Shown here: one piece after another, positions 6,541 to 10,998 of the stretch
Layout: every line of letters begins with the position of its first letter
Position numbering within the stretch: position 1 is the first letter of the stretch
NCBI GenBank assembly: GCA_963783385.1
Contig: CAWANJ010000001.1
Location: forward strand, 1-64,000
Length of the DNA stretch: 64,000 nt
Direction: 5' to 3'
Source: an uncultured Gemmatimonadales bacterium
Lineage (GTDB): Bacteria > Gemmatimonadota > Gemmatimonadetes > Palauibacterales > Palauibacteraceae
Notes under the pieces: generated by a model
The model's input: only the letters and a program-made list of their open reading frames with translations
What the model was told of the DNA's origin: nothing
Database searches by the model: none
Position numbers and translations under genes: made by a program

Positions 6541-7725
6541 ATGAACATCGCCATCCAGGGCGCCGGCATCGGCGGTCCCACTCTCGCCTACTGGCTGCGC
6601 CGCGCCGGACACGAGCCCACGCTGATCGAGGAGGCGCCGCGCCTCCGCACCGGGGGCTACGTCATCGATTTCTGGGGCGTCGGCTACACGATCGCCGAGC
6701 GCATGGGCATCCTGCCCGAAGTGCTGGAGGCGGGATACAGCTTCGGCGAGCTCCGCCTCCTCGACGCCCGCGGCCGACGGGTGGGCGGCTTCTCGACGGA
6801 CGTCTTCCGGCGCATGACCGGCGGACGGTTCACCAGCCTGCCCCGCGGAGACCTCGCCGCCGCCATTTACCGCGCGGTCGAGGGGCGGGTCGAGACCCTG
6901 TTCGGCGAGTCGATCGCGTCGCTCGAGGAAGGCGACGGAGGCGTGCGAGTCACGCTCGACGGCGGCGCGACCCGCGACTTCGACCTCGTCGTGGGAGCCG
7001 ATGGCCTCCACTCCCGGGTTCGCCGCCTGGTGTTCGGGCCGGAGGAGCGGTTCGAGAAGCGGCTGGGCTACCGGGTGGCGACCTTCGAGGTCGAGGGATA
7101 CCGGCCGCGCGACGAGCTCGTGTACGTGGCCCACGCGGAGCCCGGCCGCCAGCTGGCCCGCATTGCTCTCCGCGGCGACCGCACCGTCTTCCTCCTCGTC
7201 TTCCGGGCGGACGTCATGCAGCGACCGGAGCCCACCGACCTCGAAGAGACCCGCGCTCTGCTCCGGGAGGTCTTCGGAGAGTCGGGCTGGGAGGCGCCGC
7301 GCATCCTGGACGCGATGGACGCCGCGCCGAGCCTCTATTACGACCGGGTGAGCCAGATCCGGATGCCCGCGTGGTCCAGGGGCCGGGTGATGCTCGTCGG
7401 CGACGCGGCGGCCGCCGTGTCCCTCCTCGCCGGCGAGGGGACCGGCCTGGCGATGACGGAGGCCTACGTGCTGGCCGGTGAGCTGGGGCTCGCGAAAGGC
7501 GATTTCCGCGCGGCCTTCCGGAGCCAGGAGGAGCGGCTCCGTCCCTTCGTCGAGGGGAAGCAGGAAGCGGCCGAGGGCTTCGCCTCCTCCTTCCTCCCCC
7601 GGACTCGCCTGGGCATTCGGTTCCGGAACCAGGTGACCCGGGTCATGGGCCTTCCCAAGGTGGCGGAGTTCACCGTGGGCCGGACCGTCGCCGACGACGT
7701 CGAGCTGCCGGAATACGCCCTGTGA
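6541..7725 (+). CDS. FAD-dependent monooxygenase/oxidoreductase
   Basis: GAGIGG, VGADG and LVGDAA flavin motifs. Confidence 0.9.
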   Translation: MNIAIQGAGIGGPTLAYWLRRAGHEPTLIEEAPRLRTGGYVIDFWGVGYTIAERMGILPEVLEAGYSFGELRLLDARGRRVGGFSTDVFRRMTGGRFTSLPRGDLAAAIYRAVEGRVETLFGESIASLEEGDGGVRVTLDGGATRDFDLVVGADGLHSRVRRLVFGPEERFEKRLGYRVATFEVEGYRPRDELVYVAHAEPGRQLARIALRGDRTVFLLVFRADVMQRPEPTDLEETRALLREVFGESGWEAPRILDAMDAAPSLYYDRVSQIRMPAWSRGRVMLVGDAAAAVSLLAGEGTGLAMTEAYVLAGELGLAKGDFRAAFRSQEERLRPFVEGKQEAAEGFASSFLPRTRLGIRFRNQVTRVMGLPKVAEFTVGRTVADDVELPEYAL

Positions 7726-7730
7726 GACGT

Positions 7731-7792
7731 CGGACCGGCCGTCGACGCGGCGGCACCGGACCGGCCGTCGACGCGGCGGCACCGGACCGGCC
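7731..7792. repeat. 26-bp tandem repeat, about 2.4 copies
   Basis: CGGACCGGCCGTCGACGCGGCGGCAC at 7731 and 7757, partial copy at 7783. Confidence 0.9.
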
Positions 7793-8091
7793 CCTGCACC
7801 GGCCGGACATTCAACTGGCCGGCAGGGTCTTGACAGCTTTCCGTTGACGGTCGGCGCGGGGGCCGGCCCCCCGTCTCGATCCGGCCTCCGGGCCCCTTGA
7901 GGCCCCCTCTCCCGCCCGTGCGCCCTTCTCTCCCCTTCGCTTCTCCTCCCACCCCGCGTTGATCCCGCAGCCGCCGCCTCCTGAGACCCAAAATTAGCCC
8001 TGTATATTGGTGGGCAAGGAGTTCCGGGCCTTCGCGGGTCGCGCGGCGGGGCCCCGGAAGGCCGCCACATGGGTCGGGATGGGAGGGGACG

Positions 8092-9855
8092 ATGGGAGCG
8101 ATGGGACTGGCGCTGGCCCTGCACGAAGTGGCCGGGATGGGTTACGGAGAGGAGCAAGGGCTCCGAACCCCGGGGATCGGGGGCCCGGCGGCGGGCCTGG
8201 GCGTCCCCGCCGAGACGCGACCCGGGTCGGACGTCCCCGCGGGGACGCGCCGGAAGCCGGGCGCGGCGGAGGAGGCCGCCGACCCGGACTCCCTCGACCG
8301 GCTCGGGGACCAGATCGCCACGCTGGCGGCGCACATTCACGCGGCCACCCACCGGCTTCTCAGCCTGATCGCCTGCTTCGACCGGCTGCGGGGCTGGGAG
8401 GCGGCCGGCCACCGGGGCTGCGCGGAGTGGCTGGCCTGGCGCACCGGCATGGACCCCCACACGGCCCGAGAGCACGTCCGGGTGGCGAGGGCCCTCGAGG
8501 CGCTGCCCGAGACGAGCGCGTCGATGAGCCGTGGCCGGCTCTCCTTCTCCAAGGTGCGGGCCCTGACCCGGGTGGCGGACCCGGAGAACGAAGCCGACCT
8601 CCTCGAGCTGGCCGAAGGGGTGACGGCGGCCCGGCTGGAGCGCGTGGTCCGGGCGTGGAAGCGAGGGAGCCGGCAGGACGAGGCCCGCCGAACCGAACAG
8701 CTCCACCGCCTGCGCCGACTGTCGGTCTTCCCCGACGAGGAGGGCATGTACGTGATCCGGGGTCGGCTCGAGCCCGAGGTCGGAGCCCTCCTCATGCGCG
8801 CCGTCGAGGCGGCCGCCGATGCGCTCTACCGGGAGGAGCGCAGGGCGGACGGCGAGGAGCGGACCCGGGCCCCGCAGCGGGCCCCGCAGCCGGAGTCCGA
8901 TCCGGACGTCCCCGCGGAGACGTCCGATCGCGTCCCCGCGGAGACGCCGACCCCCGGCGGAGCGGAGGCCCCGTGCACCTTCCGCGACACGAGCCGGGAG
9001 GCGGCCCGCCGGCGGGCCGACGCGCTCGGGCTGCTGGCCGAGCGGGCGCTGGCGGCCGGCTTCGGAGGCGCGGCCGGCTTCGGAGGCGCAGGCCTGGACG
9101 GGGACGAGAGTGCGGGCGGGGAGGAAGGCGACGCCTCCCCCTCCGACGCCCCGATCAGCGGCACGCGGGCCGAGCGCTACCAGGTCCTCCTGCACGTGGA
9201 CGCCGACACCCTGTCGGCCGGCCGCGAGCCCGGCCGCTCGGAGCTCGAGGACGGCACCCGCGTCTCCGCGGAGACGTCCCGCAGGCTGGCCTGCGACGCG
9301 GCCGTCGTCCGGGTCGAGCACGCGCCCGAGCAGGGCCCCCTCCTCTCGGTCGGCCGCCGCACCCGCACCATCCCGCCGGCGCTCCGCCGGGCGCTCGAGG
9401 TCCGGGACCGCGGCTGCCGGTTCCCGGGCTGCGGGCTCCGCTTCACCGACGCCCACCACGTCGAGCACTGGGCCGACGGCGGGGAAACCAGCCTGGACAA
9501 CTGCCTCCTCCTGTGCCGCTACCATCACCGGCTCGTCCACGAGGGCGGCTGGCGGCTGGAGTGGTGGGGGAAGGGCCGGGCCGTGTTCCGGGATCCGCGC
9601 GGCTTCGATCACTTCGACGAGACCCGCGAAGCCGGGGTCTGGGCCCGGAGCCGGACCCGGAGCCGGAGCTCGCAGCGAAGCTCGAGCCGGACGAGCCACG
9701 AGGGATCGCCGGACGCCCTCGTTCGCGCCAACCGGCTCCACGGCGCCGACCCGGGCCCCCTGGCCGCCTCGGCCCGCTGGAAGCGGGAGCGCGACATCCC
9801 CGACGACGTCTGGTTCCGAGCCATGGAGGCGGGGATGGAGCCGGCTTCAGGCTGA
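8092..9855 (+). CDS. DUF222 + HNH endonuclease (13E12/Rv1128c-like)
   Basis: N-terminal WLAWRTG...AREHVRVARAL...GRLSFSKVRALTRVA; C-terminal RDRGCRFPGC...HHVEHWADGGETSLDN...LCRYHHRLVH; SD GGGAGG upstream. Confidence 0.9.
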   Translation: MGAMGLALALHEVAGMGYGEEQGLRTPGIGGPAAGLGVPAETRPGSDVPAGTRRKPGAAEEAADPDSLDRLGDQIATLAAHIHAATHRLLSLIACFDRLRGWEAAGHRGCAEWLAWRTGMDPHTAREHVRVARALEALPETSASMSRGRLSFSKVRALTRVADPENEADLLELAEGVTAARLERVVRAWKRGSRQDEARRTEQLHRLRRLSVFPDEEGMYVIRGRLEPEVGALLMRAVEAAADALYREERRADGEERTRAPQRAPQPESDPDVPAETSDRVPAETPTPGGAEAPCTFRDTSREAARRRADALGLLAERALAAGFGGAAGFGGAGLDGDESAGGEEGDASPSDAPISGTRAERYQVLLHVDADTLSAGREPGRSELEDGTRVSAETSRRLACDAAVVRVEHAPEQGPLLSVGRRTRTIPPALRRALEVRDRGCRFPGCGLRFTDAHHVEHWADGGETSLDNCLLLCRYHHRLVHEGGWRLEWWGKGRAVFRDPRGFDHFDETREAGVWARSRTRSRSSQRSSSRTSHEGSPDALVRANRLHGADPGPLAASARWKRERDIPDDVWFRAMEAGMEPASG

Positions 9856-10012
9856 TTCCCGACACGGCGCGTCCCCGCGGGGACGTCTCCATCGAGCTCG
9901 CGCCGGCACCGATCCGGGGCGCACAGCTCGCGCCGCAGGGCCGCGGCGGGCCCGCGTCCGGAAACTCTCGCCTCGGGCATTGTTCGCGAAACCGCACGTC
10001 CCCGCGGGGACG
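8202..10012. repeat. Seven dispersed copies of the 16-bp palindrome CGTCYCCGCGGRGACG
   Basis: Copies start at 8202, 8232, 8907, 8931, 9261, 9870 and 9997; those at 8232, 9261, 9870 and 9997 are perfect palindromes. Confidence 0.9.
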
Positions 10013-10047
10013 TCACCGACGCCGGAGACCGCCCCTGCTCCGCCGCC

Positions 10048-10095
10048 CGACCGCCCCGCCGGGCCGTCCCTCGACCGCCCCGCCGGGCCGTCCCT
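10048..10095. repeat. 24-bp perfect tandem duplication
   Basis: CGACCGCCCCGCCGGGCCGTCCCT at 10048 and 10072. Confidence 0.9.
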
Positions 10096-10101
10096 CGCCC
10101 C

Positions 10102-10998
10102 CTACTCCCCCTCGCCCGTCAGGTACAGCCGCAGCTTGCCCAGCACCGTGTCGGCGGTGAGCTGCACGAGGGTGCGGGCGGGGTCGTCGGTCACGTACAC
10201 GCGGGCGTGGCGCTTCTCGGCGAACAGGCCCGTCTCGGGAATCACCACGTCGAGGCCCACGACCTGGAAACGGCCGGCCGGCGTGCGCATCTCCCGCCGC
10301 TCGGCCACGTGGATGTGCACGGGATTGCTGTTGGCGCGGAAGAAGCGCGGGATCACGTAGTCGGCGCCGGGATCGAGCGGCAGGGTGCGGGGCAGGAAGA
10401 GCACGGCCACGTCGTCCACCGCGTTCTGGGGGATCGGCCCGCTCTTCGGCCGGTCGGAGGCCGGCTCGTACTCGGCCCCGGGCAGCGGCACGATGCTGTA
10501 CTGCCCCTCCCCACCGTCCAGCTCCAGCCGGTAGGCCTCCTTGTGGGGACCCTCGTGCAGGTTGCGGTCCGAGCGCAGCGTCCGCAGCGGCGCGGCCGCG
10601 ATCCAGCTCACCAGGCTGTCGTCCAGGGTGAGGAACAGGGCCCCGCCCTCGATCTGCAGCGTCACGGGGAAGGCCTCGACCCCGCCCACCTCGCGCGCCT
10701 CCCCCACGGAGAGGGTGGCGTGCGCGGCGTGGATCGGCCCCAGCGACAGACCGTACTCGAGCCGCGTGCCCGAGGGCGGGAGGGCCGGAGCCGCCGCGGC
10801 TCCGGAGGGCGCCGCCGCGGCTCCCGAAGGCGTCGCCGCGGCCCCCGACGGCGTCGCGGCGGCGCCCGCCGAATCGCTCACCGCGGGCCCCCGCTCGGGC
10901 TCCGCGGACTGCGCGGCGGCGGCCGACGCGCTCCACAGCATTGCGAGCCCCCCGACGAGCGCCAGCGCGCTCGCCCGCGCTCTCCGGCTCCTCCTCAC
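10102..10998 (-). CDS. DUF3108 domain secreted protein (paralogue 2)
   Basis: Shares LEYGLSLGPIHA, DDSLVSW, LRTLRSDR.LHEGP and LRLYLT with 2108-2941; GTG start at 10998 after AGGAAGGAG; GAAA(T/A)PS linker repeats. Confidence 0.8.
   Translation of the reverse strand: MRRSRRARASALALVGGLAMLWSASAAAAQSAEPERGPAVSDSAGAAATPSGAAATPSGAAAAPSGAAAAPALPPSGTRLEYGLSLGPIHAAHATLSVGEAREVGGVEAFPVTLQIEGGALFLTLDDSLVSWIAAAPLRTLRSDRNLHEGPHKEAYRLELDGGEGQYSIVPLPGAEYEPASDRPKSGPIPQNAVDDVAVLFLPRTLPLDPGADYVIPRFFRANSNPVHIHVAERREMRTPAGRFQVVGLDVVIPETGLFAEKRHARVYVTDDPARTLVQLTADTVLGKLRLYLTGEGE

Follow-up and report, generated by a model that had tools for sequence, protein, structure and literature searches.

The first 64,000 nucleotides of contig CAWANJ010000001.1 (assembly GCA_963783385.1, from an uncultured Gemmatimonadales bacterium), hereafter the window, were analyzed for a nuclease gene of the DUF222-HNH type and for the family of 16-bp palindromes that accompanies it. 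The window forms the start of contig C1 of an assembly of 3.54 Mb with 71% G+C, the nearest public relatives of which are metagenome-assembled genomes of Gemmatimonadota (Longimicrobiales). The gene (positions 8092 to 9855, forward strand, 587 amino acids) is one of five paralogues in this genome. Its product matched PF02720 (DUF222) over residues 74-439 with 67.1 bits (curated cut-off 24.4, E 2e-18) and PF01844 (HNH) with 26.1 bits (cut-off 21.4, E 1e-5), the HNH nuclease domain being situated at residues 425-498 (9364-9585, forward strand). The Pfam search of the 587-residue protein returned these two domains only, with neither an HUH/Y1 nor a ParB_N (CTPase) domain, and no matches for the gene were obtained in NCBIfam, in PADLOC or in a single-sequence search of PDB sequences.

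The initial annotation had claimed a cluster of seven palindrome copies at this gene, and the cluster was recovered. The degenerate pattern CGTCYCCGCGGRGACG matched exactly at six positions of the window (8232, 8907, 8931, 9261, 9870 and 9997) and not once in 100 dinucleotide-preserving shuffles of it. The seventh copy, CGTCCCCGCCGAGACG at 8202, differs from the pattern by a single mismatch, its center being CGCC instead of CGCG. When up to two mismatches to CGTCCCCGCGGGGACG were allowed, seven matches were obtained, all within 8202-10012 (shuffle mean 0.65, maximum 3), and no further copy was found in the window outside this interval, in agreement with the statement that full copies were missing elsewhere. 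Likewise, the copies at 8232, 9261, 9870 and 9997 were perfect palindromes and longer inverted repeats were present at 8903-8926 and 9996-10013 (an 18-nt perfect palindrome), as had been described.

Open reading frame (ORF) coordinates and translation also bore out that five copies share one frame inside the coding sequence and that two follow the stop codon. The five internal copies start 111, 141, 816, 840 and 1170 nt from the ORF start and code, in this order, for VPAET, VPAGT, VPAET, VPAET and VSAET. The degenerate copy (8202-8217) belongs to a variable N-terminal stretch and is followed by the perfect palindrome CGTCCCCGCGGGGACG (8232-8247). The third and fourth copies, both CGTCCCCGCGGAGACG, are located at 8907-8922, inside the longer inverted repeat 8903-8926, and 24 nt further on at 8931-8946. 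The fifth, the perfect palindrome CGTCTCCGCGGAGACG (9261-9276), lies at the DUF222/HNH junction and represents the family-wide internal site. The 8202/8232 and 8907/8931 pairs resemble in-frame tandem duplications. The 8907 and 8931 copies sit in a 114-nt in-frame segment that is missing from the 92-97% identical orthologue in the same-genus genome G003, and a perfect copy occupies the position equivalent to 8931 in three of the paralogues (B, C and D below).

The two non-coding copies are found downstream of the TGA codon (9853-9855) and before a convergent ORF ending at 10102. The first 3' module (9854-9885) begins within the stop codon and is composed of GATTCCCGACAC, 4 nt and the perfect palindrome 9870-9885; the second (9982-10013) is composed of GTTCGCGAAAC, 4 nt and the palindrome 9997-10012. 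A 5' extension of the form G[AG]TTC[CG]CG.C..., situated 4 nt ahead of the palindrome, was common to non-coding copies. It was seen in the window at 9854-9885 and 9982-10012, and elsewhere in the same genome at C7:14292, C2:405060, C3:40078 and C6:210837, as well as at C7:27629, C7:28202, C9:759726 and C9:978366; it may correspond to an additional half-site.

Upstream of the gene, a 5' leader (7799-8091, forward strand) was conserved with 74-78% identity to paralogues B, C and D. The left edge of this homology is marked by CCGGCC...GGCCGG (7799-7822), an inverted repeat followed by TTGACA (7830-7835), by a promoter-like site with a TATATT ending at 8008 (one found, 0.0 expected) and, ahead of the ATG, by a putative ribosome-binding site (GGGAGG). 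Directly upstream of the leader, 7733-7790 contains tandem copies of a 26-nt unit (GGACCGGCCGTCGACGCGGCGGCACC); genome G003 has a single GGACCGGCCGTCGACGCGGCGGCACC unit there, and genome G001 has three 62-nt repeats, each holding the palindrome CCGGTTCCGCGGAACCGG. Two additional features were observed inside the gene. At 9002-9019, a separate 18-nt perfect palindrome, CGGCCCGCCGGCGGGCCG, codes for AARRRA and is kept in paralogues A-D. At 9054-9089, an 18-nt unit is duplicated in tandem and in frame (AGFGGA twice), and the orthologues of G001 and G002 lack this duplication.

Paralogues and arm variants in the host genome

The five DUF222-HNH loci of the genome are A (the window gene), B (C1:677185-678868), C (C7:12502-14178), D (C2:405191-406872) and E (C9:978642-980430). 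A and C are intact, and B, D and E are frame-shifted. DNA homology among A-D spans from about position 7799, including the 290-nt leader, to just beyond the first 3' palindrome. Additionally, a 74-nt match (86%) to the leader start was observed at a contig end (C4:30-103), which may be a sixth gene copy cut by assembly.

Genome-wide, the exact pattern occurred 21 times, and 15 of these copies were located in or within 600 nt of A-D, that is, of four of the five paralogues. The proposed tie between palindrome and gene was therefore found again at the scale of the genome, a part of the count being explained by paralogy. Copies in unrelated genes at C7:166489 and C9:35257 may be due to chance; at the former, VP[AED]ET is the ancestral peptide and the difference from relatives amounts to just 3-4 bases. 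The copy at C9:35257 is exact and belongs to another HNH-like gene (CFYCEG...VDHFVPW), where it is read in a different frame. At C7:27300-28500 (locus L151), a small minus-strand gene is flanked by two non-coding palindrome modules at a distance of 570 nt from each other, and portions of the region have paralogous counterparts (73% and 88%) in the upstream flank of paralogue C. The segment C7:28034-28202 is only a suggestive candidate for an "empty" counterpart of that flank. Upstream of E, the segment L004:1346-2207 matched many contigs of G001 and G003 with 73-80% identity and probably belongs to an insertion sequence or to some other repeat present in many copies.

Paralogue E codes its VSAET motif as GTT TCA GCT GAA ACG, which is a perfect 16-mer. 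The same 16-mer recurs 276 nt before the start of E and over its stop codon, where it is part of a 30-nt perfect palindrome. Arm variants within this one genome thus differ by paralogue (CGTCYC for A-D, CGTTTC for E), and the flanks of each copy share its own variant.

This distribution bears on the possibility that the palindromes are operators for a separate, LexA-like repressor controlling a damage-inducible nuclease, after the model of the mycobacterial 13E12 genes, and that the nuclease itself does not read them. Multiple operators, intragenic ones included, are suited to repression by looping, as in the cases of lac O2 and gal OI, and the conserved leader holding a promoter-like site would fit such a scheme. 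A LexA precedent also exists at M. tuberculosis 13E12 genes: PMC3381160 mentions six LexA chromatin immunoprecipitation peaks at these genes, with some SOS boxes within coding sequences. However, the region upstream of the host lexA gene was devoid of the palindrome and carried a different inverted repeat. Of the 21 exact copies, all of which were accounted for, none was seen ahead of a repair gene, and the sites were nearly confined to gene-bearing genomes. Finally, the variants differ between paralogues of one cell and match their own flanks, so that a single host repressor fails as an explanation. We consider this alternative unlikely.

Codon choice at the V-S-x-E-T motif

Homologues were collected from 79 related loci, in 74 of which the motif could be located. 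It was coded in nearly all of them as CGTTTC-NNNN-GAAACG, the commonest form being CGTTTCCGCGGAAACG, a type of variant that had been predicted by the initial annotation, with CGTTTCAGCTGAAACG also among the commonest. Codon usage was examined for 48 non-redundant homologues (less than 80% amino-acid identity) from three phyla. The valine of the motif was GTT in 38 of 41 cases (0-3 of about 42 in other conserved valine columns), the glutamate was GAA in 43 of 48 (12 of 43 elsewhere) and the threonine was ACG in 44 of 47 (18-26 of 39-45 in other conserved columns). The motif codons of paralogue E are rare for a genome of 71% G+C, and the GTT and GAA of the relatives are rare codons as well. Perfect 16-mers were found in 30 of the 48 genes versus 0.87 expected (maximum 5) from 2000 synonymous resamplings based on each gene's own usage, and perfect 6-bp arms in 38 of the 48 versus 2.8 expected from the same resampling.

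These figures can be set against a functionless origin, in which GC-rich codon usage on a conserved peptide, paralogy and tandem duplication would account for all copies. Common GC-rich codons can indeed spell V-S-A-E-T as a palindrome in the present genome, two pairs of copies look tandem-duplicated, and the 15 of 21 genomic copies associated with paralogues point the same way. However, most relatives choose rare GTT and GAA, and the coding copy is matched exactly by non-coding and solo copies, which makes this origin hardly credible; codon-usage chance as the source of the palindrome was excluded by the resampling.

Changes in the arms were symmetric. Positions 7/10 of the palindrome were C-G in 27 of the 48 homologues, A-T in 16 and unpaired in the other 5, with at least eight changes of state by parsimony on a tree built without the motif columns. 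Positions 4/13 were T-A in 40, C-G in 4 and other in 4. The arm variants found (CGTTTC, CGGTTC, CGTTCC, CGTCTC and CGTCCC) are each one mirror pair apart. A mirror double change was also observed outside coding sequence: at the 9997 site, the G003 orthologue has CGTCTCCGCGGAGACG, i.e. CGTCCC..GGGACG versus CGTCTC..GAGACG. A distant homologue on a phage-labelled contig carried CGTTCCCGCGGGAACG, of the CGTTCC type, within a 28-nt palindrome at the equivalent position of the gene. Because rare synonymous codons are kept across phyla and because arm changes are symmetric, the constraint acts on nucleotides and not on the protein, as the initial annotation had proposed for DNA or RNA.

The peptide itself may follow the palindrome. 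The middle residue depends on the 4-nt center, with ATAT giving Tyr, GACG giving Thr and GATG giving Met. Within V-S-A-E-T, each first or second codon position is complementary to its mirror partner, a property shared by about 1/1000 random pentapeptides according to simple arithmetic. In view of this complementarity, of the center-dependent middle residue and of the low-confidence linker in which the structural model described below places the motif, the suggestion that the VSAET peptide is a by-product of the DNA palindrome is plausible.

Nucleotide constraint could in principle also be exerted on the transcript, with 6-bp stem-loops in the mRNA or at its 3' end governing stability, translation or processing. 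A 6-bp stem closing a 4-nt loop is stable, and the copy located 14 nt past the stop codon could be a 3' stabilizer. However, no terminator-like site was found and a scan of 7000-10600 against Rfam (E up to 1) gave no match. In E and in other loci, copies precede the promoter-like site, solo copies in unrelated genes are found on either strand, and imperfect copies show C.A as frequently as G.U on the sense strand. An action at the RNA level is accordingly regarded as very unlikely.

Copies within loci and among genomes

Further copies with perfect arms were present within about 3 kb in 29 of the 74 loci. At least ten loci had copies outside the ORF, on the 5' side or 9-240 nt past the stop codon, and the non-coding copies first noticed in the window are thus recurrent beside homologues. 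Where both were of the CGTTTC type, 14 of 18 further copies (from 11 of 15 loci) had the same 4-nt center as the internal site, for about 0.38 expected, and this agreement within a locus extended to the rare centers ATAT and GACG. One imperfect 16-mer was repeated exactly and one asymmetric 16-mer was repeated as its reverse complement, each within its locus. The spacing of the arms was invariable: over 449 kb, CGTTTC and GAAACG were separated by a 4-nt spacer 69 times and never by spacers of 0-3 or 5-10 nt.

At the level of the phylum, PF02720 was present in 7 of 121 sampled genomes. CGTTTC-N4-GAAACG was counted 5, 0, 4, 0, 10, 7 and 10 times in these seven genomes. The remaining 114 had 0-3 occurrences each, in most cases 0 or 1; this tally includes one background match contributed by the unpublished genome G086. 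The complete genomes G093 and G107 contained seven and five solo exact copies of CGTTTCAGCTGAAACG away from DUF222 genes, for which chance amounts to about 3e-4 per genome (arithmetic from base composition). Solo exact 16-mers inside unrelated coding sequences of these two genomes (loci L127, L130, L128, L123 and L126/L131) code for VSAET or (A/T)FQLKR. In a molybdopterin-enzyme-like gene (L127), the GVDAAVL of orthologues is replaced by GVSAETL, with rare codons and no indel. In a transporter gene (L130), CGTTTCAGCTG is followed by AAACG in place of CGCCG, a 3-nt change relative to a 91% identical orthologue that concerns the right arm only. Solo copies in unrelated genes occur on either strand and arose through clustered substitutions without indels.

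Comparison of this genome with G003 revealed two indel junctions that abut a palindrome. The first involves a solo CGTTTCAGCTGAAACG at C9:941705 (locus L148; L164 on contig C14 of G003), which borders a 2.4-kb insertion/deletion between the two genomes. The insert, present in G003, holds 2-3 genes, none of them DUF222; G003 also has a second palindrome with the same right flank 1.6 kb on. The second involves the 3' palindrome of E: a 671-nt segment (L004:4316-4986) starts at the end of the 30-nt palindrome, and G003 has 67 nt instead. This cassette contains a HigA-like XRE antitoxin gene behind an AT-rich promoter-like stretch.

A predicted ParB-like domain and related systems

An AlphaFold model based on a 48-sequence alignment comprised a helical domain (residues 65-207, pLDDT, i.e. 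predicted local distance difference test, 96-98) and an HNH domain (residues 430-500, pLDDT about 82). Residues 377-399, which include VSAET, were of low confidence, and residues 1-60 were of low complexity with a pLDDT below 50. In a Foldseek search of the PDB, the top rows were only DNA-binding domains of ParB, Spo0J and Noc, with a probability of about 1, and residues 78-195 (8323-8676, forward strand) are accordingly predicted to form a ParB/Noc/Spo0J-like helix-turn-helix domain. A second aligner, applied to the same residues, gave, in its best 10 rows, Z 8.2-9.6 and root-mean-square deviations of 2.2-2.9 Å over 93-103 aligned residues. The ParB/Noc family accounted for all of the best 12 rows (Z 7.3-9.6, 2.2-3.6 Å), with KorB next at Z 5.8, and the matched chains include DNA-binding domains of Noc, Spo0J and ParB solved on NBS (the Noc site) and parS.

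The following region (residues 200-326; 8689-9069, forward strand) combines a predicted homodimer interface (residues 200-244 and 302-326) with a variable linker holding two palindromes. Homodimer prediction for residues 60-510 scored 0.55 versus 0.00 for the best control. The partner pLDDT was no lower than 63 and the runs had 64% or more of their contacts in common; 20 of 30 solved homo-pairs and 1 of 23 single chains attained this mark. The prediction supports a symmetric homodimer but does not establish it. Among solved structures, the HNH domain was nearest to that of IscB, with a profile E of 7.8e-5, and to that of McrA, with Z about 7.

The palindrome also resembles the sites of these DNA-binding proteins. 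PMC7383237 gives TGTTTCAC as the consensus half-site of parS and TATTTCCC as that of NBS. The half-sites of the present palindrome are CGTTTCAG and CGTTTCCG, with six of eight bases identical to parS. A chromosomal parB gene is found elsewhere in the genome (C6:395395), with a parS-like TGTTTAACGTGAAACA about 1 kb upstream (C6:394379), and 12 genomes of the phylum without DUF222 contain a single CGTTTCACGTGAAACG each, which we infer to be the chromosomal parS.

On balance, we think it probable that the gene encodes a tripartite nuclease, made of a ParB/Noc-type helix-turn-helix domain, a dimerizing middle region and an HNH domain, whose own dimer reads 16-bp parS-like duplex sites. Since the predicted fold is of ParB type, the half-site is parS-like and a symmetric homodimer is predicted, the most likely role of the palindromes is that of duplex sites read by the ParB-like domain of the protein itself, and the protein probably binds its own gene. 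Residues ~78-195 would then constitute the structured core of DUF222, with the middle region mediating dimerization and the C-terminus bearing the nuclease. Each site, which would accommodate one dimer, would consist of two 6-bp arms with exactly 4 bp between them; the arms are CGTTTC in most relatives and, here, CGTCTC or CGTCCC. The site at the DUF222/HNH junction would dictate the codons of V-S-x-E-T and probably much of the peptide, and other sites would be tolerated in dispensable linkers, in the 5' region, just past the stop codon and as a few solo genomic copies. Because the same protein would read both half-sites, an arm could change only if its counterpart underwent the mirror change, a co-variation for which a hairpin is not required.

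Two roles can be envisaged for such binding. Occupation of the 5', internal and 3' sites may repress or mark the gene in a KorB-like manner. Binding may also deliver the HNH domain for nicking or cutting nearby, leading to recombination, gene conversion or indels at the sites. The second role fits the indel junctions abutting palindromes, the solo copies that correspond to clustered substitution, and the mycobacterial 13E12 genes located at inversion breakpoints (in the passages available from PMC13157036).

Several observations weigh against a ParB-type reading of the sites. The ParB/Noc matches had weak Foldseek E-values (0.08-0.3). The tool also warns that a common arrangement can bring helical domains to Z values of the order seen here (8-9.6), so that the fold match is good evidence but not proof; all top rows nevertheless belonged to one family. 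Helix-turn-helix residues 100-165 were compared with the site variants over 48 proteins and no clean residue-to-base match emerged: the changes AEW, DPHT and REH mark one clade, and paralogue E breaks the REH correlation. Tree-aware analysis of covariation retained only three independent pairs on supported branches, all concordant, and its support is weak (sign test p 0.25). The CGTTTC-type site was absent from two DUF222-bearing genomes, G087 and G127, the sites of which may be other arm variants. In the G001 orthologue, the internal palindrome is gone (LSAET, CCTCTCGGCGGAGACC) and the other palindromes are retained. In the actinobacterial DNA sample, which consisted of five plasmid matches only, an Arthrobacter plasmid homologue had a non-palindromic MHPNT at the motif, and the motif was not located in two further homologues. 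Moreover, a palindrome alone cannot separate a duplex site from a hairpin, and perfect palindromes could be maintained by intrastrand template switching in the absence of selection.

A further-reaching version of the ParB-type reading is a self-perpetuating pair of protein and site in which the DNA site came first. The conserved VSxET of a very large family would be mainly a translated binding site, and the nuclease, acting at near-cognate sequences, would write new exact copies into unrelated genes via short-patch repair. Such nuclease action could also turn the sites into hot spots for the insertion or loss of neighboring DNA. The L127 and L130 cases, both from complete genomes of the same class, point to this scheme, which we put forward as a tentative possibility only.

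Literature searches yielded no text linking DUF222/13E12 to ParB, to a binding site of its own or to a mechanism, and no published function or site pairing was found for the family; the passages retrieved call it only a repeat family or an unknown domain. The DUF222-HNH genes (13E12 repeats) form a large multi-copy family, for which a ParB-type reading supplies a concrete hypothesis. They would also represent an unusually clean natural example, spanning phyla, of codon choice, and probably of peptide sequence, being overruled by a DNA-binding site, with orthogonal variants of site and protein available inside one genome.

Among known systems, the initial annotation had turned to REP/RAYT (repetitive extragenic palindromes and their associated transposases) and to IS200/IS605, with the HNH protein binding or cutting hairpins or cruciforms and so moving the gene or spreading the repeats. 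A nuclease gene with short palindromes, scattered solo copies and some bracketed genes is common to these systems and to the present one: copies bracket E, L052 and L038, solo copies are scattered in carrier genomes and the gene is multi-copy. Symmetric arm changes, the maintenance of perfect palindromes and a non-pairing center compatible with a 4-nt loop are likewise in favor of hairpins. However, the nuclease is HNH and no HUH/Y1 domain was found, the predicted binding domain is of the duplex-reading ParB type with parS-like arms, the loop length is invariant at 4 nt, and the arm sequence itself, beyond pairing, is kept across phyla. Copies number only 5-10 per genome, several of them within the nuclease's own coding sequence and within other genes, and the fixed spacing and duplex type of the site are further differences. 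The 21 copies of this genome are mostly inside paralogues, with flanking copies seen for E and for some relatives, which departs from REP-type abundance. As to mobility, which had also been suggested, A was syntenic in the three same-genus genomes, with no recent movement seen. A search of the flanks of A, C and E against these three genomes revealed neither defined ends nor empty sites, with no clean empty site for C and E. A hairpin mechanism of this type is therefore considered improbable.

Free-standing HNH homing endonucleases share with the present family the association of HNH with a separate sequence-reading module and a patchy, multi-copy and selfish-looking distribution. Their homing site is destroyed or absent in the carrier genome, whereas intact palindromes are found here within and beside the gene.

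Another close system is the REP13E12/13E12 family of mycobacteria (DUF222, PF02720, mostly with HNH). Pfam family and domain order are the same, with DUF222 above its cut-off and a C-terminal HNH domain, and the genes are multi-copy in both, here with five dispersed loci in the genome. Palindromic protein-binding sites in or near the genes, putative ones here, are another shared trait, the mycobacterial ones being LexA SOS boxes and M. tuberculosis members being damage-induced (passages from PMC3381160). Rearrangement is a third, with inversion breakpoints there (passages from PMC13157036) and two indel junctions abutting palindromes here. The present genes differ by their host phylum and by a palindrome that is parS-like instead of a LexA box.

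ParB and Noc differ from the present protein in their ParB_N CTPase domain, which is lacking here, an HNH domain being fused at the C-terminus instead. The gene also lies away from the origin and not beside parA, and it is multi-copy, each copy having its own site variant. Location of a site inside the gene of its own binder would have a parallel, since parS is reportedly found within B. subtilis spo0J (a finding said to go back to Lin and Grossman in 1998, for which our literature search found no text). The 16-bp palindromic site of parS/NBS type, the predicted symmetric dimer and the presence of several sites per replicon are points of likeness to ParB and Noc, and the DNA-binding domain fold predicted for residues 78-195 would be common to the ParB-parS, Noc-NBS and KorB-OB systems.

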